Below, one piece after another: positions 373-55,248 of a stretch of DNA of 64,000 nt. How positions within the stretch are numbered: the stretch's first letter is position 1; the number at the start of each line of letters is the position of its first letter. This stretch comes from Gemmatimonadales bacterium (GTDB taxonomy: Bacteria > Gemmatimonadota > Gemmatimonadetes > Gemmatimonadales > GWC2-71-9), in contig JAICJD010000001.1 in the NCBI GenBank assembly GCA_025928645.1, positions 24,108 to 88,107 on the forward strand. Direction: 5' to 3'. The notes beneath the pieces were generated by a model. That model was not told the DNA's origin. It did no database searches and worked only from the letters and a program-made list of their open reading frames with translations. The translations under genes and the position numbers were made by a program.

Positions 373-1940
373 TCCGCTCGCGGTCCGGCCCGGGAATCGT
401 GTGGGGGCTCGCCCTGGCATTGGGGGCGCCCGTGCCGCTCGCCGCCCAGACCACGACCTACGAGCAGCTGCAGGCATTCTCCGGTGTCTTGAGCCAGGTC
501 AGGGCCAACTACGTGGATTCCGTGGACGTGGGCCGCCTGGTCCAGGCGTCCATCCGGGGCATGTTGAGCTCGCTGGACCCTCACAGCCGGTACGTGACCC
601 GCGAAGACTTCGACCTCCACGTGCGCTGGGACCGGGGCGACCTCGCCGAGCCGGGGCTCTCGCTCGAACGGTCGGATGGGGCCGCCATCGTCCTCGACGT
701 GCAGACGGGAGGGCCCGCGGCTCAGGCCGGTGTTCAGCCCGGCGACCGGATCGTCCGGGTGAATGACAGCAGCGTGGTGGGCCTTGATCCGAACGCCGTC
801 GAGGCACGGCTCCTGGGCGACAAGGGAACGCGTCTCCGCATCACTTTCGAGCGCGGCAGCGTGGTGGATCCCGATACGTTTGCGGTCACCGTGAAACGCG
901 CGTTGCTCGACCACCGTGTCGTGACCGCACCGCGGATGGTGGACCCGTTGACCGGCTACGTGAGGCTCCAGCGGTTCACCCCGCCCGCGCCCAAACAGTT
1001 GAGCGAGGCGGTCAGGAAGCTGAGGGGCATGGGCGCGAAGCAGCTCGTGCTCGACCTGCGCGGCAATCCCGGTGGGGATCTCCAGGCCATGATCGAGATC
1101 GCCTCCGAATTCCTTCCGGACGGGTCCGAGGTGCTTCACACGGAAGGGCGCAAGACATCGACGCTCCCCCGGGCTGTGACGCATGGGGCCGGTGAGTTCA
1201 CGGCGCTTCCCCTGATCGTGCTGATGAACGCCGGATCGGCGAGCGCCTCGGAGATGCTCGCGGGCACGCTGCAGGACCACGATCGAGCCCTCATCCTTGG
1301 CCGGCGGAGCTTCGGCAAGGCCTTGATGCAGTCGGCCCTGCCGCTGGCGAACGGTGATGTCGTCTGGCTGACCACTGCCCGGGTCGTGACGCCGAGCGGG
1401 AGGATCATCCAACGTCGGTATACGGGCCTGGGGACGGACGAGTATCTCGCGCTGGCCGGAAGGGGTGGCGCGCCGGAGGACACGCTCGCGGTATACCGCA
1501 CTGACCACGGCCGGCCGGTTCGCGGCGGTGGTGGCGTAGCGCCTGACGTGACACGGCCCCTCGGAGCAGAGATTCCGGTCTGGTTCAGCGTAGCGTCCGA
1601 GCGCGGGTACGCCATGGCCGTCGCCGACAGCGTTGCCGCGACCCTCTCCCCCGCGGCGCCCGCGCGCACCGCGTGGCTCGCCGACAGCGCAGCGTGGGAC
1701 ACTCGGCTCGTAACGCCATTTCTTGCACAAGTGCGAGAGCGGCTCGGAGCTCGGGCGGAGTGCTCGCCGGCGCTTCGAGCCCGAATTGGGCGTCTGCTGG
1801 CGGCTCGAGCCGCCTTCACGCGCTGGGGCAGCGATGCCGAGGAAGACCTGCTCCTTGGGACCGACGCCGACGTCCGGGCGGCGCTGCCGCTGTTTCCCCG
1901 CCTTCCGGAGCTGCTTGCCGGCTCGGGGGTAGCTCCCTAG
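369..1940 (+). CDS. S41 family C-terminal processing (tail-specific) peptidase with PDZ domain
   Basis: N-terminal signal-like segment (WGLALALGAPVPLAAQ). PDZ-like GVQPGDRIVRVNDSSV. S41 motifs LVLDLRGNPGGD and GSASASE...RRSFGK. The GTG start overlaps the upstream stop (GTGA). Confidence 0.85.
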   Translation: MIRSRSGPGIVWGLALALGAPVPLAAQTTTYEQLQAFSGVLSQVRANYVDSVDVGRLVQASIRGMLSSLDPHSRYVTREDFDLHVRWDRGDLAEPGLSLERSDGAAIVLDVQTGGPAAQAGVQPGDRIVRVNDSSVVGLDPNAVEARLLGDKGTRLRITFERGSVVDPDTFAVTVKRALLDHRVVTAPRMVDPLTGYVRLQRFTPPAPKQLSEAVRKLRGMGAKQLVLDLRGNPGGDLQAMIEIASEFLPDGSEVLHTEGRKTSTLPRAVTHGAGEFTALPLIVLMNAGSASASEMLAGTLQDHDRALILGRRSFGKALMQSALPLANGDVVWLTTARVVTPSGRIIQRRYTGLGTDEYLALAGRGGAPEDTLAVYRTDHGRPVRGGGGVAPDVTRPLGAEIPVWFSVASERGYAMAVADSVAATLSPAAPARTAWLADSAAWDTRLVTPFLAQVRERLGARAECSPALRARIGRLLAARAAFTRWGSDAEEDLLLGTDADVRAALPLFPRLPELLAGSGVAP

Positions 1941-47317: not shown

Positions 47318-47613
47318 TTCCCTGCGAAGAGATGTCTGCTGGCGTTCGGGCGCGGGAATGTATCGCCCGGGGCGGCCCGGCGTGTCAAGTCTCTAACGCT
47401 ATGCTCGGTACAATGTTACGCAGTATGCGCCGGCGGAGTTCCAGGGCGGGGCGGCAATCTCGGCCGGTCGGTGCGGATAAGTGCAAATCCCGGGCCCGGA
47501 TATGAATGCCGCGCGGGGGCGCGGACGGCCCGCTGCCGAGCGCAGGGAGCCGTCCCGTGGCTTGGATGCCGCGACAGGTCGAGCCAGGCGTCGCACCGGG
47601 TCGACGAGCTGGA

Positions 47614-48777
47614 CTACTTGAGCAGGCTCTTGGCGATGGTCTGGAGCTGCATGTTGCTGGTGCCCTCGTAGATGGTCCCGATCTTCGCATCGCGGTAGTA
47701 CTTCTCCGCCGGATACTCCTTCGAGTACCCGTAGCCGCCGAACAGCTCGAGGCAGCTCGACGTGGTCCGGTCGGCCACCTGCGAGCTGAACAGCTTCGCC
47801 ATGGCGGCCTGCTGCGCGAACGGCTGCCCCGCGTCCTTGAGCCGCGCGGCGTTGTAGACCATGAGCCGCGCGGCCTCGAGGTCCGTCGCCATCTGCGCGA
47901 GCTGGAACTGCACGCCCTGGAACTCCGCGATCGTCTTGCCGAACTGGCGGCGCTCCTTCACGTACGCGGTCGCGGCCTCGAGCGCCCCGGTCGCCAGGCC
48001 GATCATCTGCGCTCCGATCCCGATCCGTCCTTCGTTGAGGGTCTCGATCGCGATCTTGTATCCCTGGCCGATCGGCCCCAGCACGTTGGCCTCCGGCACC
48101 CGGCACTGCTCGAGGATGAGCTCGGTCGTGCTCGAGGCCCGGATGCCGAGCTTGTTCTCCTTCTTGCCGACCGAGAACCCCGGAAAGCCGCGCTCCACGA
48201 TGAAGCCGGTGATCCCCTTGTATCCCTTGGAAGGATCGGCGTTCGCGAACACGATGAAGACGCCGGCCTCGGCCCCGTTGGTGATCCAGAACTTGCGGCC
48301 GGTGAGCTCCCAGCCCTCGCCCGCGCGCACCGCTCGGGTGGCGAGCGCGAAGGCATCGCTGCCGCTGCCGGGCTCCGACAGCGCGAACGCGCCGAGCAGG
48401 CCGCTGGTGAGCTGGGGGAAGTAGCGGGCCTGTTGCTCGTCGTTGCCCCAGCGGAGAAAGCAGTTGTTCACCAGCGTGTTGTGGACATCCACGTAGATCG
48501 CGGCCGAGGCGTCCACCCTGGCGAGCTCCTCGATCGCGAGCACCGACATGAAGATGCCGCCGCCGGCGCCGCCGAACCGCTCGGGCACCTCGATGCCCAT
48601 GAGCCCGAGCTCGAAGAAGCGGGGAATCAGCTCCGGCCGGAACTGCGCCGCCTCGTCCATCGACTGGACGTGCGGCCGCACCTCGGTCTCCGCGAACTCG
48701 CGCACGGCGTCGCGGAACATCTGTTCTTCGTCGGACAGGGTGGTAAGAGCGGGCGCGGCACTGCGGAGGTCCTGCAT
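47614..48777 (-). CDS. Acyl-CoA dehydrogenase (short/branched-chain type)
   Basis: ALSEPGSGSDA, FWITNG, and GGYGYSKEYPAEKYYRDAKIGTIYEGTSNMQ. Confidence 0.9.
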   Translation of the reverse strand: MQDLRSAAPALTTLSDEEQMFRDAVREFAETEVRPHVQSMDEAAQFRPELIPRFFELGLMGIEVPERFGGAGGGIFMSVLAIEELARVDASAAIYVDVHNTLVNNCFLRWGNDEQQARYFPQLTSGLLGAFALSEPGSGSDAFALATRAVRAGEGWELTGRKFWITNGAEAGVFIVFANADPSKGYKGITGFIVERGFPGFSVGKKENKLGIRASSTTELILEQCRVPEANVLGPIGQGYKIAIETLNEGRIGIGAQMIGLATGALEAATAYVKERRQFGKTIAEFQGVQFQLAQMATDLEAARLMVYNAARLKDAGQPFAQQAAMAKLFSSQVADRTTSSCLELFGGYGYSKEYPAEKYYRDAKIGTIYEGTSNMQLQTIAKSLLK

Positions 48778-48812
48778 GCGACTGGCGCTCCGGCGAAGGT
48801 CGAGGGCGGTGG

Positions 48813-50693
48813 TCAGGTCGGGGGAGTATATCCCGGACTTCCGACCGGTTCAATCGGCGCGGCCTCGAGCACGTCGAGCGCCACCGGCACTCGGCCGAGC
48901 GGCGCCGCCACCTGCACGCCCTGGACCCGCTCGGCGACGGCGGCCAGCATCTCGCGCGAGATCCGCACGCCTTCGGCCAGCCCCTCCTCCTTGCCCCGCG
49001 CGCTCGCGGCCCGCATCCGCTCCACCACCGCGTTCGGCACGCTCACGCCCGGCACTTCGTTCGCGAGGAACTCCGCGTTCCGGAGCGAGACCAGCGGCCA
49101 GATGCCCGCCACGATGGGGATCCTGAAGCTCTCTACCCGCGAGAGGAACCGGTCGAGCTGCGCCAGGTCGAACACCGGCTGCGTGATGGCGTACTCGGCG
49201 CCCGCCTCGACCTTGTAGGCGAAGCGCTTGAGCTCGCGCTCGAGGTCCGGCGCCGCGGGGTTCACCCCGACGCCGATCACGAACCGCGTGGGCTGGCCCA
49301 GCGGATTGCCGCCGGGATCGAGCCCGTGATTGAGTCGGCTTACCAGATTGGTGAGTCCGATGCTGTCGATGTCGAAGACCGCCGTGGCGTCAGGATACGG
49401 GCCCATCTTGGGCGGATCGCCCGTGATGATGAGCAGGTTGCGGACACCGGCCGCGGCCGCGCCGAGCAGATCCGACAGCATGCCGAGCAGGTTGCGGTCG
49501 CGGCAGGCGTAGTGGACCACGGCTTCGAGCCCCACCTCGCGCTGGATCATGAGCGCGGAGAGGAGCGCGCCCATCCGGCTCTGTGCGCGGGGCCCGTCGG
49601 GCACGTTCACCGCGTCCACCCCCGCGGCCTTGAGCTGGCGGACCTGCTCGAACATCGGCGCCGGATCCACCCCCTTGGGCGGCACGATCTCCACCGTGGT
49701 GACGAACCGCCCCTCGGCGAGCTTGGCCCCGAAGCGGGAGCGCGCGGCCAGCGGCACCGACTGCAGGGCCACCGCCGGCGCCGGCGCGGGCAGCGTGCCG
49801 AGATCGAACGCGTGGCGGGGCGAGACGCTCTGCACGAAGCCCACGATGGCGCGGATGTGCTCCGGCGTCGTACCGCAGCACCCGCCGACGAATCGTGCGC
49901 CTGCCTCCACCATGCGCCGGGCGTAGCTCGCCATGTACTCGGGCGAGGCCATGTACATCTTGCGGTCGCCCACCTCGCGCGGCAGGCCGGCGTTGGGCTG
50001 CGCCGCGATCGGCACCGTCACCACGCGCGCGAGCTTCTCGACCGCCTCGAGCACGCCGTGCGGGCCAACCGAGCAGTTGACCCCGATCACGTCCACGTCC
50101 ATGGCCTGGAGCTCGGGGCCGAACACCACCGGGTCGGTGCCGTAGTGGGTCTTTCCGTCGGTGCCCACCGTCATCTGGGCGATGAGCGGCAGGTCGGACA
50201 CCGACCGCACCGCCTGCACCGCGGCGCCCAGCTCCGCGACGTCGCTGAAGGTCTCGAGGATGAAGCCGTCGACGCCGCCCGCGAGCAGCCCGCGCGCCTG
50301 GCGCTCGTACATGGCGCGGGCTTCCTCGAGCGACAGCTCGCCGAACGGCTCGACCCTGACGCCCAGCGGTCCCATCGCGCCGAGCACCGCCGCGCGGGAT
50401 CCGGCGGCGTCGCGGGCGAGCCCCGCCGCCTCGGTGTTGATCCGCTCGGTCTCCGCCGCCAATCCATGGGTCGCGAGCTTCAGCGGGTTGGCGCCGAAGG
50501 TGTTGGTCTCGAGCAGCTCGGCCCCGGCCCGCAGGTACTCGCGGTGGATGTCACGCACGAGGTCGGGCTGGCGCAGGTTGAGCTCGTCGTAGCACACGTT
50601 GAGGAACACGCCGCGCCCGTACAGCATGGTGCCCATGGCCCCGTCCACCACGTGGACGCGGCCGTCGGCCAGGAGGTCGCGCAGCGTCGGCAC
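48813..50693 (-). CDS. Bifunctional homocysteine S-methyltransferase / 5,10-methylenetetrahydrofolate reductase (YitJ-like)
   Basis: N-terminal Hcy-binding domain ([33 protein letters not shown]). C-terminal MTHFR-like domain (FVTTVEIVPPKG…ITGDPPK…). It starts 1 nt after the metH stop. Confidence 0.85.
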   Translation of the reverse strand: MPTLRDLLADGRVHVVDGAMGTMLYGRGVFLNVCYDELNLRQPDLVRDIHREYLRAGAELLETNTFGANPLKLATHGLAAETERINTEAAGLARDAAGSRAAVLGAMGPLGVRVEPFGELSLEEARAMYERQARGLLAGGVDGFILETFSDVAELGAAVQAVRSVSDLPLIAQMTVGTDGKTHYGTDPVVFGPELQAMDVDVIGVNCSVGPHGVLEAVEKLARVVTVPIAAQPNAGLPREVGDRKMYMASPEYMASYARRMVEAGARFVGGCCGTTPEHIRAIVGFVQSVSPRHAFDLGTLPAPAPAVALQSVPLAARSRFGAKLAEGRFVTTVEIVPPKGVDPAPMFEQVRQLKAAGVDAVNVPDGPRAQSRMGALLSALMIQREVGLEAVVHYACRDRNLLGMLSDLLGAAAAGVRNLLIITGDPPKMGPYPDATAVFDIDSIGLTNLVSRLNHGLDPGGNPLGQPTRFVIGVGVNPAAPDLERELKRFAYKVEAGAEYAITQPVFDLAQLDRFLSRVESFRIPIVAGIWPLVSLRNAEFLANEVPGVSVPNAVVERMRAASARGKEEGLAEGVRISREMLAAVAERVQGVQVAAPLGRVPVALDVLEAAPIEPVGSPGYTPPT

Positions 50694-50694
50694 G

Positions 50695-53600
50695 CTAGCG
50701 CTCGTAGTTGAGGTTGGGGGCCAGCCAGCGCTCCACGGTCGCCACCGGCAGCTCCTTGCGGCGGGCGTAGTCCTCGACCTGGTCCCGCCCGATCTTGCCC
50801 ACCCCGAAGTACAGGGCCTCCGGCCGCCAGAAGTAGAACCCGCTGACCGAGGCCGCGGGCAGCATCGCGAAGCTCTCGGTCAGCGTGATGCCCGCGTTCG
50901 ACTCCGCCCGGAGCAGGTCGAACAGGATCCGCTTTTCCGTGTGGTCGGGACACGCCGGATAGCCGGGGGCGGGCCGGATGCCCTGGTACTTCTCGCGGAT
51001 GAGATCGGCATTCTCGAGCGACTCGTCGGGCGCGTAGCCCCAGTACTCCCGGCGTACCCGCTCGTGCAACCGCTCGGCGAACGCCTCCGCCAGGCGGTCG
51101 GCCAGGGCCTTCGCCAGGATGGCGCCGTAGTCGTCGTGCGCGGCCTCGAACCCGGCGGCCAGCTCCGCCGCGCCGACCCCGGCCGTCACGGCGAAGGCGC
51201 CGATGTAGTCAGCGATGCCGGTCTCGCGCGGCGCCACGAAGTCGGCCAGCGCCAGATTCGGCCGGCCCGGCGGTTTCGGCATCTGCTGCCGGAGCGTGTG
51301 CACCACCGCCAGCCGCTCCTCGCGGTCGTCGTCGGCGTAGAGCTCGATGTCGTCGCCCACCGCGTTGGCGCGGAACACCCCGAACACCGCGCGCGCCCGG
51401 AGCAGCCGCTCACGGACGATGCGGTCGAGCAGCGCCTGGGCGTCCCGGTAGAGGCTCGTGGCGGCGGCGCCGACGGTGGGGTCGTCGAGGATCGCGGGGT
51501 AATGGCCCGGCAGCTCCCAGGTCTGGAAAAAAGGGGTCCAGTCGATGCGGGGGACCAGATCGTCGAGCGGATAGTCGTCGAGCACCGTGAGTCCGGTCGA
51601 GCAGGGAGCCGGCGGCGGCGTCCGCGCCCACTCGATGGCCAGGCGGTGGCGCCGCGCGTCCGCGATCGATTGGCGCCGCTCATCGGGCCGCCGCCGGCTC
51701 CGCTCATCGCGCATGTCCCGGTACTCGCGGCGCACGCCCGACACGAAATCGTCGCGCAGGGTATCGCTCAACAGCGTCCCCGCGACGCCGACCGCCCGCG
51801 AGGCGTCGAGCACGTGCACCGTCGGTCCGTGGTAGTTGGGCTCGATCTTGACCGCCGTGTGCACCCGGCTCGTCGTCGCGCCGCCGATGAGGAGCGGAAT
51901 GGTGAAGCCTTCGCGCTCCATCTCGCTGGCGACGAACGCCATCTCCTCGAGCGACGGTGTGATGAGCCCGCTCAGGCCGACGATGTCCACGCCCTCGCGG
52001 CGCGCCGTCTCGAGAATCTTGGCCGAAGGCACCATCACGCCCAGGTCGATCACCTCGTAGTTGTTGCACTGCAGCACGACGCCCACGATGTTCTTCCCGA
52101 TGTCGTGCACGTCGCCCTTCACGGTCGCGAGCAGCACCCGCCCGTTGGTCTGGGCCGCGGCCCCCGCCTCCCGCGACGCCTCGATGTAGGGCACCAGGTG
52201 CGCCACGGCCTTCTTCATCACCCGGGCGCTCTTCACGACCTGCGGCAGGAACATCTTGCCGGCGCCGAACAGGTCACCTACGACGTTCATGCCCGCCATG
52301 AGCGGGCCCTCGATCACCTGGATCGGCCGGTCGAACTGCTGCCGGGCCTCCTCGGTGTCCTCGATGATGAAGTCGGCGATGCCCTCGACCAGCGCGTGGG
52401 TCAGCCGCTCCTGGACCGGCGCGTCGCGCCAGGCCAGGTCGGCCGCCTGGGCGCCGAGCTGCCCCTTCACCTGGTCGGCCGCGGCGAGCAGGCGGTCGGT
52501 GGCGTCCGGCCGCCGGTTAAGCACCATGTCTTCGACCAGCTCGAGCAGGTCGGCCGGGATGTCGGCGTAGATCGGAAGCTGGCCCGCGTTCACGATGCCC
52601 ATATCCATCCCCGCCTCGATGGCGTGGTACAGGAACACGGCATGGATCGCCTCGCGCACCGGGTCGTTGCCGCGGAACGAGAACGACACGTTGCTCACGC
52701 CGCCGCTCACCGACACGTGCGGCAGCGCGGCCTTGATCCGCCGCGTGGCCTCGATGTAGGCCACCGCGTAGTCGTTGTGCTCCTCGATCCCGGTCCCGAT
52801 CGCGAAGACGTTCGGATCGAAGATGATGTCCTCGGGCCGGAGCCCGACGCGCTCGGTGAGGATGCGGTAGCAGCGCTTGCAGATGGCCAGCTTGCGTTCC
52901 GCCGTATCGGCCTGACCCTGTTCGTCGAAGGCCATCACGATCACCGCGGCGCCGTACCGCCGCACCAGCGTGGCCTGGCGGACGAACTCCTCCTCGCCCT
53001 CCTTGAGGCTGATGGAGTTGACGATGCCCCTGCCCTGAATGCACTTGAGCCCGGACTCGATGACCGACCACTTGGACGAGTCGAGCACGACCGGCACCCG
53101 GCTGATATCGGGCTCCGCGGCGGCGAGCTGGAGGAACTTCACCATGGCCGCGGCCGAGTCGAGCATCGCCTCGTCCATGTTGACGTCGATCATCTGCGCG
53201 CCATTCTCCACCTGCTGGCGCGCGATCTCGAGCCCCGCCTCGTAGTTCCCCGACAGGATGAGCCGCGCGAACTTGCGCGACCCGGTGACGTTGGTCCGCT
53301 CGCCCACGTTGGCGAAGATGCTGTCCGGTCCGATCGTGAGCGGCTCGAGGCCGCTCAGCCGGAGCTTGGGTTCGAGCTCCGGCCGCTGGCGCGGTGGAAG
53401 CCCTCGGACCGCTTCGGCGATCGCCCGGATGTGGTCCGGCGTGGTGCCGCAGCAGCCGCCCACGAAATTGAGCAGTCCGTGCTCGGCGAACTCGCGGAGC
53501 ACGGTGGCCATGTGCTCGGGCGTGTCGTCGTACTGCCCGAATTCGTTCGGCAGGCCCGCGTTGGGGTGCGCGCTCACGAACACCGGCGCCACCCGGGCGA

Positions 53601-54432
53601 GCTCCTGCACGTACTGCCGGAGCTGCACCGCGCCCAGCGCGCAGTTGAGCCCCACGCTCAGCGGCCGCGCATGCGACACCGAGTTCCAGAATGCCTCGGT
53701 CATCTGGCCCGAGAGCGTGCGCCCGCTCGCGTCCACGATGGTCCCCGAGATCATGACCGGCACCCGGAACCCGATCTGGTCGAACACCGCCTCGATCGCG
53801 AAGATGGCGGCCTTCGCGTTGAGGGTATCGAAGATCGTCTCGACCAGCAGCAGGTCGGCCCCGCCGTCGATCAGCCCGCGGGCGCCGTCCGCGTAGGTGG
53901 CGACAAGCTGGTCGAACGTGACGTTCCGGAACCCGGGATCGTTCACGTCCGGCGAGAGTGAGGCGCTCCGGTTGGTGGGCCCCAGGACACCGGCCACGAA
54001 CCGCGGCGCGTCGGGGGTGCGCTGCTCCCAGGCATCGGCGGCGTCCCGCGCGAGGCGCGCGGCGGCGCGGTTGAGCTCGTAGACCAGCTCCTCCATGCCG
54101 TAGTCCGCCAGCGACATGGCGTTGGAGGTGAACGAGTTGGTCTCGATGATGTCGGCCCCGGCCTCCAGGTAGGCCATGTGGATGGCCCGGATGATGTCGG
54201 GCTGGGTCAGGGTCAGCAGATCGTTGTGGCCTCGGAGGTCCCGGGGCCAGTCGGCGAAACGTTCGCCCCGGTAGTCGGGCTCCGCCAGCCGGTACGACTG
54301 GATCATCGTGCCCATGGCTCCGTCGAGCACGAGGATCCGCCGGGCCAAGAGCGGCTCGAGCAGGGTCAGCCGTGCGTCGCGGGATAGCACGGTGGCGGAA
54401 GAGGCGGGGGGTAAGGACTGATCAACGGGCAC
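50695..54432 (-). CDS. metH: Cobalamin-dependent methionine synthase
   Basis: Hcy domain ([24 protein letters not shown]), pterin-binding domain, B12-binding [10 protein letters not shown]…SGLITPS, and a C-terminal AdoMet activation domain. Start set to the GTG at 54430-54432, with GGAG 5 nt upstream. The track's TTG start at 54468 lies inside a terminator stem. Confidence 0.9.
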
Positions 54433-54448
54433 GGCTGCTCCGGGGATG

Positions 54449-54481
54449 AAAAAACCCCTGAAGGCCAAAACGCCTCAGGGG
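54449..54481 (-). terminator. Intrinsic terminator / attenuator 17 nt upstream of the metH start codon
   Basis: Minus strand CCCCTGAGGCGTTTTGGCCTTCAGGGGTTTTTT: a 9-bp stem (with one G-U pair) followed by U6. It is followed by the SD sequence and the GTG. Confidence 0.7.
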
Positions 54482-54669
54482 ATGCGTTTTAGCGGTTGTT
54501 TAACGTGGCCGCAAGCAGCGCAAATCGCCACGACTGAGTTGTCCGACCCAAGTAACCTATCAGCCGGCCTCCCGCGGGCCAAGGCCTGGGCCGAGGAGAG
54601 GCGGACGCCTCCGGGCATCGGAATCACGAATGACCCGCCCCCCGTGCTCCCTCCGATGCCTGGAGCCGC
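54482..54669 (-). promoter_or_regulatory. Structured 5' leader of the metH operon (candidate riboswitch aptamer or attenuator; class unassigned)
   Basis: It contains hairpin GGCATCGGA…TCCGATGCC (54660-54652 with 54622-54614). It also contains hairpin CGTGGC-GATTTGCGCTGCTTGCG-GCCACG, whose loop (GATTTGCG) can pair with the 3' tail (CGCTAAAAC). The AAAACGC segment (54490-54484) can alternatively pair with GCGTTTT (54473-54467) in the terminator loop. Confidence 0.35.
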
Positions 54670-55248
54670 TCAGATGTGCGACAGCACGAAGCCGCGGACT
54701 ACGCTCAGCAGCAGCCAGGCGACCAGCGGGCTGAAGTCGATCATGCCGAGCGGCGGGAGAATCCGGCGGATCGGATCGATGATCCAGTCGGTCAGGATCA
54801 TGACCGGCCGCATCCACGGCCGATACGGGGAGATGCCGAACCAGGAGGAGATCACTCGCACGAACAACGCGATGATGAGCAGGGTGAACAGCCCGTTGAC
54901 CAGCGAGTAGGCCCAGGCGCGCGGTCCCGACCGCGCCATGATCCCGACCGTGATGGCAAACCCCGCCAGCCACTGCACCAGGCTCACGAGCAGCAGGCCG
55001 CCCACGATCGCGATGCCGACCAGCCACAGCGGCGCGTCCTGCGGGTTCCCTCCCGAACGGAGGATGCGCCGCTCGAGCGGCCGGAGCACCGGGTCGCTCG
55101 CCTGCCGCACGAGGCGCGGCCAGCGGCCGAAGGGGCTGATCCGCCGGCTCCGCACCGCCCAGTGGGTGAGCGCCACGATCGTGGTGTACACCAGCGCCAC
55201 GACGACCACGACGCGGGAGGCGAGAATGAGGTATGGAAAGACCATCAT
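54670..55248 (-). CDS. YggT family membrane protein
   Basis: FVRVISSWF…ILTDWIIDPIRRILPPLGMIDFSPLVAWLLL is the YggT signature region. Four to five TM segments. Confidence 0.8.
   Translation of the reverse strand: MMVFPYLILASRVVVVVALVYTTIVALTHWAVRSRRISPFGRWPRLVRQASDPVLRPLERRILRSGGNPQDAPLWLVGIAIVGGLLLVSLVQWLAGFAITVGIMARSGPRAWAYSLVNGLFTLLIIALFVRVISSWFGISPYRPWMRPVMILTDWIIDPIRRILPPLGMIDFSPLVAWLLLSVVRGFVLSHI

Follow-up and report, generated by a model that had tools for sequence, protein, structure and literature searches.

A member of the SAM-II riboswitch class in the metH leader of a Gemmatimonadales bacterium

Background

SAM-II riboswitches were defined as a class by Corbino et al. in 2005. 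They follow OFF logic, and in many members a terminator lies between P2 and the open reading frame (ORF) (PMC1273637). Near-consensus -35 and -10 elements are found a few nucleotides ahead of P1 (Corbino et al. 2005, PMC1273637). Within Proteobacteria, no other class is linked to terminators as often as SAM-II, which has been placed in the alpha-, beta- and gamma-Proteobacteria and in the Bacteroidetes (PMC2258182). Proteobacterial targets listed for it are metY, metA, metX, metW, hom, and metC (Leyn et al. 2014). The gene metH (COG0646 together with COG1410) lies downstream of several representatives from the Sargasso Sea (Corbino 2005, Additional file 1, PMC1273637).

SAM-II RNAs bind S-adenosylmethionine (SAM) and discriminate against SAH. 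How the class holds its ligand can be seen in the crystal structure 2QWY, in which the adenine of SAM lies stacked between U21 and G22 and has the unpaired U44 as its pairing partner. A triple is made by U11 and the pair U21-A45, U10 contacts U44, and U12 contacts A46 (PMC3303485).

The closest described systems are those of alpha-proteobacteria (the metA motif), such as A. tumefaciens metA and S. meliloti metZ (PMC1273637, PMC9373788). The element described here has the same P1, the same GAUUUG/GCUUGC/GUUAAA/GCUAAA blocks, and the same pseudoknot between loop and tail. A terminator after P2 and a target in the methionine pathway belong to both, as do a putative promoter a few nucleotides before P1 and probable OFF logic, and in both the 3' strand of the pseudoknot doubles as a predicted antiterminator strand. 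The host is different: known SAM-II elements come from Proteobacteria and Bacteroidetes, whereas this one comes from Gemmatimonadota. No paper that mentions SAM-II together with Gemmatimonad* was found in the open-access literature.

The metH operon

The window analysed here is a stretch of 64,000 nucleotides from a Gemmatimonadales bacterium, and all positions below refer to it. The gene metH (50695-54432, minus strand) encodes a cobalamin-dependent methionine synthase of 1245 amino acids. All five MetH domains are found in it by Pfam (S-methyl_trans, Pterin_bind, B12-binding_2, B12-binding, and Met_synt_B12). The second gene of the operon (48813-50693, minus strand), whose start overlaps the metH stop, encodes a fusion of a homocysteine S-methyltransferase with MTHFR (626 amino acids; Pfam S-methyl_trans and MTHFR). 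Just 3' of this gene and overlapping its end is an ORF of 484 amino acids (47399-48853, minus strand) without a Pfam match; an ORF of 570 amino acids on the opposite strand overlaps it, and either of the two may be the real gene.

Upstream, the intergenic interval runs from 54670, where a YGGT-family gene of that strand stops, to the GTG start codon of metH (54432-54430, minus strand). Read along the minus strand, it contains an inverted repeat, a GC-rich spacer, the P1 hairpin, the segment UUAAACAAC, an A-rich tail, a terminator with its U6 tract, and 16 nt that include GGAG.

Identity of the aptamer

The leader matches the Rfam family RF00521 (SAM_alpha, SAM-II) at 54472-54541 on the minus strand, with 40.7 bits over model positions 1-79 of 79. 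In the scan of the whole 64 kb window the E-value is 1e-5; in a local scan it is 8e-8. The score lies about 5 bits over the curated gathering score of 36 bits, and this is the sole Rfam match at the gathering threshold across the whole window. All of the strongly conserved consensus blocks (CGUGG, GAUUUG, GCUUGC, CCACGUUAAACAA, and CGCUAAA) are present in the alignment, which also contains two matched deletions of 4 nt, one halfway along the loop and one immediately 3' of the tail.

Apart from RF00521, a permissive local Rfam scan returned only noise and a sub-threshold match to the SAM-II long-loop variant RF01726, which was rejected at 28.2 bits against a gathering score of 44. SAM-V (RF01826), SAM-I (RF00162), SAM-IV, SAH (RF01057), cobalamin (RF00174), and ZTP gave no match in 54300-54800, even with permissive filters and E-values of up to 10 allowed. 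Of the families that the initial annotation had put forward for a scan, SAM-II was the one that matched, while SAM-V, SAH, SAM, and cobalamin did not.

The metH leader element is an ordinary, bona fide member of the SAM-II class, which has been known since 2005. Metabolic target and platform are likewise of known kinds, since both metH and terminators have been described with SAM-II before. The initial annotation had proposed a candidate riboswitch for the methionine-cycle operon, and the match to RF00521 before that operon bears this out. Its suggestion that the element may be an undescribed class, only loosely reminiscent of SAM-II or SAM-V, gives way to a score above the gathering threshold and to a SAM-II core that is kept together with its SAM-contacting residues. 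Nothing in the evidence points to the protein-dependent attenuator that it had offered as another reading.

Distribution in Gemmatimonadota and metagenomes

Related loci were fetched with the N-terminal 350 residues of MetH, taking one genome per species (loci carry L numbers below). The closest matches, with 66-87% identity, are metagenome-assembled genomes (MAGs) of Gemmatimonadales and other Gemmatimonadota, which places the window in that phylum. RF00521 passes its cut-off directly upstream of metH in 12 of the 13 Gemmatimonadota genome loci, with 37.6-51.9 bits; the one locus with no RF00521 match before metH is L059. Since these loci were retrieved through the protein, the conservation of the RNA is independent of the search.

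SAM-II was not found in the seven loci from outside the Gemmatimonadota that were scanned (L012-L015, L017, L020, and L030, including Competibacteraceae, Pseudomonadota, and Burkholderiales). One of these, L020 from an Anaerolineae MAG, contains a SAM-I riboswitch (RF00162, 90 bits) at 2809-2913, in the same position before metH. Its ligand and its OFF logic are presumably the same, but its four-way-junction aptamer is unrelated, so that the likeness to the SAM-II element of the window is one of analogy and not of homology. In two others, a Competibacteraceae MAG and a Pseudomonadota MAG, the opposite strand has a gene for RNase P RNA (RF00010) no more than 2.5 kb upstream of metH (L015 563-920 and L017 1287-1637).

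When metagenome contigs were scanned with an exact pattern for the 5' half of the aptamer, at least 120 contigs matched. Together with the genome loci they give 118 distinct leaders among the matches listed. Because the metagenome set was collected with an exact aptamer pattern, it is uninformative about variation at the positions that the pattern fixes. A MetH-like ORF follows the aptamer in 106 of the 117 callable cases among the metagenome and genome matches listed.

The pseudoknot and the SAM-contacting residues

All parts of the aptamer lie on the minus strand. The 5' strand of P1, CGUGGC (54527-54532), pairs with its 3' strand, GCCACG (54504-54509), and encloses a loop of 17 nt, GAUUUGCGCUGCUUGCG (54510-54526), whose GAUUUG and GCUUGC blocks are identical to the Rfam consensus. 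The loop contains the U-run of L1 (54524-54522), a possible 5' strand of the distal P2, GCG (54521-54519), and the 5' strand of P2, UUGCG (54514-54510). L3, UUAAACAAC (54503-54495), follows directly 3' of P1, and is itself followed by the 3' strand of the pseudoknot, CGCUAAAACGC (54484-54494). This strand, the switching tail, is laid out as CGC-U-AAAA-CGC. Its first CGC pairs with GCG at 54512-54510 and its AA with UU at 54514-54513, leaving U54491 unpaired.

The predicted H-type pseudoknot between the P1 loop and the tail is the SAM-II pseudoknot. A hairpin CGTGGC...GCCACG with pairing from loop to tail had already been noticed in the initial annotation; it is present at 54532-54504, with the tail at 54494-54484, and matches the SAM-II aptamer.

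Each SAM-contacting residue named for the metX aptamer of 2QWY (U10-12, U21, G22, U44, A45, and A46) has an identical counterpart in the predicted SAM pocket of the window. U10-U12 correspond to U54524-U54522 in L1, U21 and G22 to U54513 and G54512 in the UUG of P2, and A45 and A46 to A54490 and A54489. U44, the residue that pairs with the adenine of SAM, corresponds to the unpaired U54491. The metX RNA is thought to act on translation, with its Shine-Dalgarno sequence hidden in the pseudoknot, whereas here the Shine-Dalgarno sequence lies 46 nt downstream, past the terminator.

The proposed helices are conserved in related leaders. In the 13 genome leaders, 100% of the P1 cells are paired, with C-G/U-G variation at both ends of the helix. 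The outermost pair of the proximal P2 covaries: among the matches listed, it is G-C in 84, G-U in 19, and A-U in 10 of the 118 distinct leaders, with 5 mismatches. The rest of the 3' pseudoknot strand is invariant.

In the distal P2 at most 3 bp are possible, between GCG (54521-54519) and CGC (54486-54484), and both strands are invariant; the alpha-proteobacterial systems have 5-6 bp there, and in Proteobacteria this helix covaries strongly. Among the Sargasso Sea members, which belong to the same class and of which some have metH as their target, AACY01001152 has a distal P2 of 3 bp followed by a terminator. The Sargasso Sea sequences are AT-rich, marine, and ascribed to alpha-proteobacteria, unlike the window.

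A further motif, (G/U)(G/A)ACAAC, precedes P1 by about 6 nt in each of the 13 genome leaders (54538-54545 in the window, with equivalents in L001-L011 and L022). Three of its A's are invariant in the 13-leader alignment, and it sits between the aptamer and the likely start of transcription.

The promoter and the extent of the leader

Two promoter-like hexamers lie upstream of P1 on the minus strand. The putative -35 element is TTGGCC (54577-54582), in which the T and G of TTG are invariant in the 13 Gemmatimonadota leaders. The putative -10 element, TAGGTT (54554-54559), follows after 17 nt, and its TA...T is conserved in the same alignment. In the 13 genome leaders the pair takes the form of conserved TTGnCn and TAnnTT blocks that are 17 nt apart and lie some 23 nt 5' of P1. 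Among the matches listed, 73 of 131 leaders contain the pattern TTGNNN-N16-18-TANNNT, as compared with 1.3% of shuffled upstream regions, and in most leaders the -10 element ends 23-24 nt before GTGG. From this placement we infer that transcription of metH probably begins near 54547, roughly 15 nt ahead of P1.

Because the conserved promoter-like pair stands at 54582-54554, the real leader is taken to be about 115 nt long and not 237 nt. Three results speak against a single structured leader of 237 nt, as originally described. The whole 250-nt region folds no more stably than shuffled sequences (z = -0.14), which led to the idea being dropped; its 5' half contains a hairpin that is not conserved; and the promoter-like pair intervenes.

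That hairpin, with 9 bp, is present as the initial annotation had it, but it is not part of the riboswitch. It is specific to this genome, it lies 5' of the putative promoter, it is missing from L002, and the region around it is no stabler than shuffles. It belongs to an inverted repeat at 54606-54668, directly after the YGGT stop, with 17-nt arms that are 88% complementary and a spacer of 29 nt. The repeat occurs in a single copy in the window and is absent from L002, the closest relative with the same YGGT-metH junction. A lineage-specific insertion could account for it; alternatively, it may be a hairpin without a U tract at the 3' end of the YGGT transcript.

A simple promoter and terminator scanner found nothing in 54200-55000. 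This is consistent with a terminator stem that is bulged, having only 3 contiguous pairs beside its loop, and with a promoter that merely resembles TTGNNN...TANNNT. RNAfold and comparative conservation were used in place of the scanner.

The terminator and the antiterminator

An intrinsic terminator ends just before the ribosome-binding site of metH. Its hairpin, CCCCUGAGGC-GUUUU-GGCCUUCAGGGG, spans 54455-54481 on the minus strand (RNAfold, -19.2 kcal/mol), with the 5' arm CCCCUGAGGC at 54481-54472 and the 3' arm GGCCUUCAGGGG at 54466-54455. It is followed by the U6 tract (54449-54454). The gap of 16 nt between the U tract and the GTG contains the Shine-Dalgarno sequence GGAG (54438-54441), 5 nt before the start codon, and most related leaders have a GGAG-like motif in the same place. 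The initial annotation had read a terminator abutting the Shine-Dalgarno sequence as an expression platform, and the hairpin at 54481-54455 with its U6, separated from the GTG by GGAG, agrees with it.

The tail of the aptamer can also pair with this hairpin. The strand GCUAAAACGC (54493-54484) and the strand GCGUUUUGGC (54464-54473, minus strand) are complementary at all 10 positions and form a 10-bp antiterminator helix, which is also detected as an inverted repeat. The shorter pairing of AAAACGC with GCGTTTT in the terminator loop, proposed at the outset, thus exists and extends further than was then described. The 5' strand GCUAAAACGC is the complete 3' strand of the aptamer's P2, and GCGUUUUGGC begins with the final 2 nt of the terminator 5' arm, runs through the loop, and ends 3 nt into the 3' arm. 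Taken with the SAM-II pseudoknot and the terminator, this complementarity supports the earlier sketch of three mutually exclusive pairings around the A-rich tail.

With two extra pairs past a mismatch included, the antiterminator reaches -13.6 kcal/mol. The terminator is stabler, at -19.2 kcal/mol, so that read-through would depend on kinetics. With the segment 54494-54430 left free to fold, the antiterminator is part of the minimum-energy structure (-24.0 kcal/mol); when the tail is barred from pairing, mimicking the SAM-bound pseudoknot, the terminator forms instead (-21.5 kcal/mol). The antiterminator is present in the free fold of 43 of 71 related leaders among the matches listed.

Across related leaders the terminator keeps its loop and top unchanged, and its lower stem varies. 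A hairpin with a U-rich tract is found in 103 of 118 leaders among the matches listed when each sequence is folded on its own. This count was preferred to pair counts from the MAFFT alignment, where 83% of the terminator pairs are paired, a figure blurred by insertions and deletions in the 3' arm.

For the antiterminator, 96 of the 118 distinct leaders among the matches listed contain a best partner strand that is complementary to the tail at 9 or more of 10 positions, against 3% of shuffles; in 89 of 93 (again among the matches listed) this partner covers the terminator loop completely. In the 13 genome leaders, 99% of the antiterminator cells are paired, with no double change and with shuffles doing equally well. 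Compensatory changes among the 118 leaders in the matches listed are four from C-G to G-C at position 10 and one from C-G to A-U at position 8, and position 3 alternates between U-G and U-A. Since such changes are few, support for the antiterminator comes from conservation and not from covariation; half of the helix (GCUAAAA) is conserved for the aptamer anyway. Of the helices proposed in the initial annotation, P1 is fully paired, the outermost proximal P2 pair covaries, and the antiterminator is conserved with few compensatory changes, whereas the 9-bp hairpin is not conserved.

The placement of the antiterminator differs from that of described relatives. When nascent prefixes of the Agrobacterium, Brucella, and Sinorhizobium sequences in the seed alignment are folded, the terminator 5' arm is paired at its base (CCGGUC/CCGGCC) with the distal P2 3' strand (GACCGG/GGCCG), whereas here the partner is the apex of the terminator. 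Such an apical placement was not found in the searchable literature.

The 3' arm of the terminator (CUUC-A-GGGG) is complementary to CCCC-GGAG, including the Shine-Dalgarno sequence (54466-54438), and the read-through conformer is predicted to mask that sequence. Masking by the freed 3' arm was set aside as a mechanism: in 71 leaders among the matches listed it is predicted at about the same frequency in both states (47 vs 43).

Proposed mechanism and alternatives

The metH leader very probably contains a SAM-II (RF00521) riboswitch that turns off transcription of metH and of the homocysteine methyltransferase/MTHFR gene when SAM is plentiful. RNA polymerase would start near 54547 from the conserved promoter, and the first 60 or so nucleotides would fold into P1 with its 17-nt loop. 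If SAM is present, the tail CGC-U-AAAA-CGC (54494-54484) would pair into this loop, giving the pseudoknot and a U-A-U triple helix that encloses the ligand. Since a tail held by SAM would be unavailable, CCCCUGAGGC and GGCCUUCAGGGG would then make the terminator, and the polymerase would halt at U6, 16 nt before the start codon. If SAM is absent, the free tail GCUAAAACGC would pair with GCGUUUUGGC once that strand has been transcribed. The antiterminator hairpin would consume the loop and the top of both terminator arms and enclose the remaining 5' arm in a small loop of its own. In the resulting kinetic competition the terminator would be delayed, allowing read-through into metH.

The aptamer could be genuine SAM-II without controlling the terminator, which would then be a constitutive attenuator or a stop that generates a small RNA, with regulation exerted on translation, mRNA stability, or the promoter. 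The greater thermodynamic strength of the terminator speaks for this, as does the pairing predicted for the Shine-Dalgarno sequence in many leaders in both states. There is also a precedent in S. meliloti metA, where a validated terminator 3' of a SAM-II aptamer is not predicted to respond to SAM (PMC9373788). However, a constitutive terminator would have no reason to keep an invariant loop and top complementary to the P2 3' strand, as is found in those 96 of 118 listed leaders against 3% of shuffles. The Shine-Dalgarno sequence lies 46 nt beyond the tail and outside the pseudoknot, and blocking the tail switches the predicted fold. We regard an uncontrolled terminator as unlikely. It is a good deal less probable still that the element only resembles SAM-II and in truth belongs to an undescribed riboswitch class or is a protein-dependent attenuator. 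The modest Rfam score (40.7 against 36) would fit such a reading, and so would a distal P2 much shorter than the alpha-proteobacterial consensus, reflected in the matched 4-nt deletions of both strands. Yet the window and 12 relatives all score above the curated threshold, with up to 51.9 bits, the conserved core blocks and SAM-contacting positions are all identical, and no other Rfam family comes near. A distal P2 of 3 bp is already known in seed members before metH, for example GCC/GGU in AACY01001152.

Finally, the hairpin and U tract sit in the intergenic region after the YGGT gene and on its strand, and might terminate that gene or an antisense transcript, their place before metH being incidental. 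This is hardly credible, since a conserved promoter-like element separates the YGGT stop from the aptamer and the spacing to the metH Shine-Dalgarno sequence is conserved (13 leaders). Moreover, the unit of aptamer and terminator stays with metH where the upstream gene differs (L001 and L003, as compared with the window and L002).

Variant leaders

Non-metH ORFs downstream of the aptamer (L151, L122, and L135) are rare exceptions. In L151, a SAM-II-like aptamer (552-578, plus strand) has an altered tail, GCUAAAAAGU, and no terminator. It is followed by AAGGAG-N7-ATG of a protein with SNF2, Helicase_C, and SWIM domains (Pfam), an unexpected target with a platform that looks translational. The downstream ORFs of L122 and L135 have no Pfam match above the cut-off.

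A subgroup of leaders (L094, L120, L123, L126, L145, L162, L189, and L193) combines the loop GCGCCUA with the tail AAAACGG(C/U). The GCGCCUA loop and the CGGC/U tail change together in 8 of 9, with an ambiguous register and in what may be a single clade. This suggests a predicted distal P2 pairing of GCC with GG(C/U). Pairing of the antiterminator partner is down to 7 of 10 positions in 6 of these 8 leaders.

Two other leaders, L097 and L118, have a hairpin without a U tract after the tail, flanked by AACGC...GCGUU and followed by GGGGAGG. Their platform may be a translational or Rho-dependent version.

Significance

The SAM-II elements before metH in Gemmatimonadota might perhaps form a distinct sub-type, marked by a distal P2 reduced to the minimum and by an apical expression platform, although we put this forward only tentatively and hold it to be rather doubtful. 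Read this way, the terminator loop and its flanks (GCGUUUUGGC) would copy the 5' strand of the aptamer's P2 and so capture the complete ligand-binding tail, and the antiterminator hairpin would enclose the terminator 5' arm rather than pair with it. Should the layout prove truly distinct from the platforms of Proteobacteria, and should function depend on it, the architecture of expression platforms would gain a further variant. The sub-type, if real, would also document SAM-II outside Proteobacteria and Bacteroidetes.

As an ordinary SAM-II element, the leader is only mildly new in its host phylum, Gemmatimonadota, by which the recorded host range of SAM-II is extended. Any annotation pipeline based on Rfam would label it, and it opens no new question. 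The unit of aptamer, antiterminator, and terminator is compact, at about 95 nt from P1 to the U tract, and could suit kinetic studies of pseudoknot riboswitches. Its value lies mainly in annotation: it points to feedback by SAM on the last step of methionine synthesis and on the supply of methyl-THF, apparently in many Gemmatimonadota.
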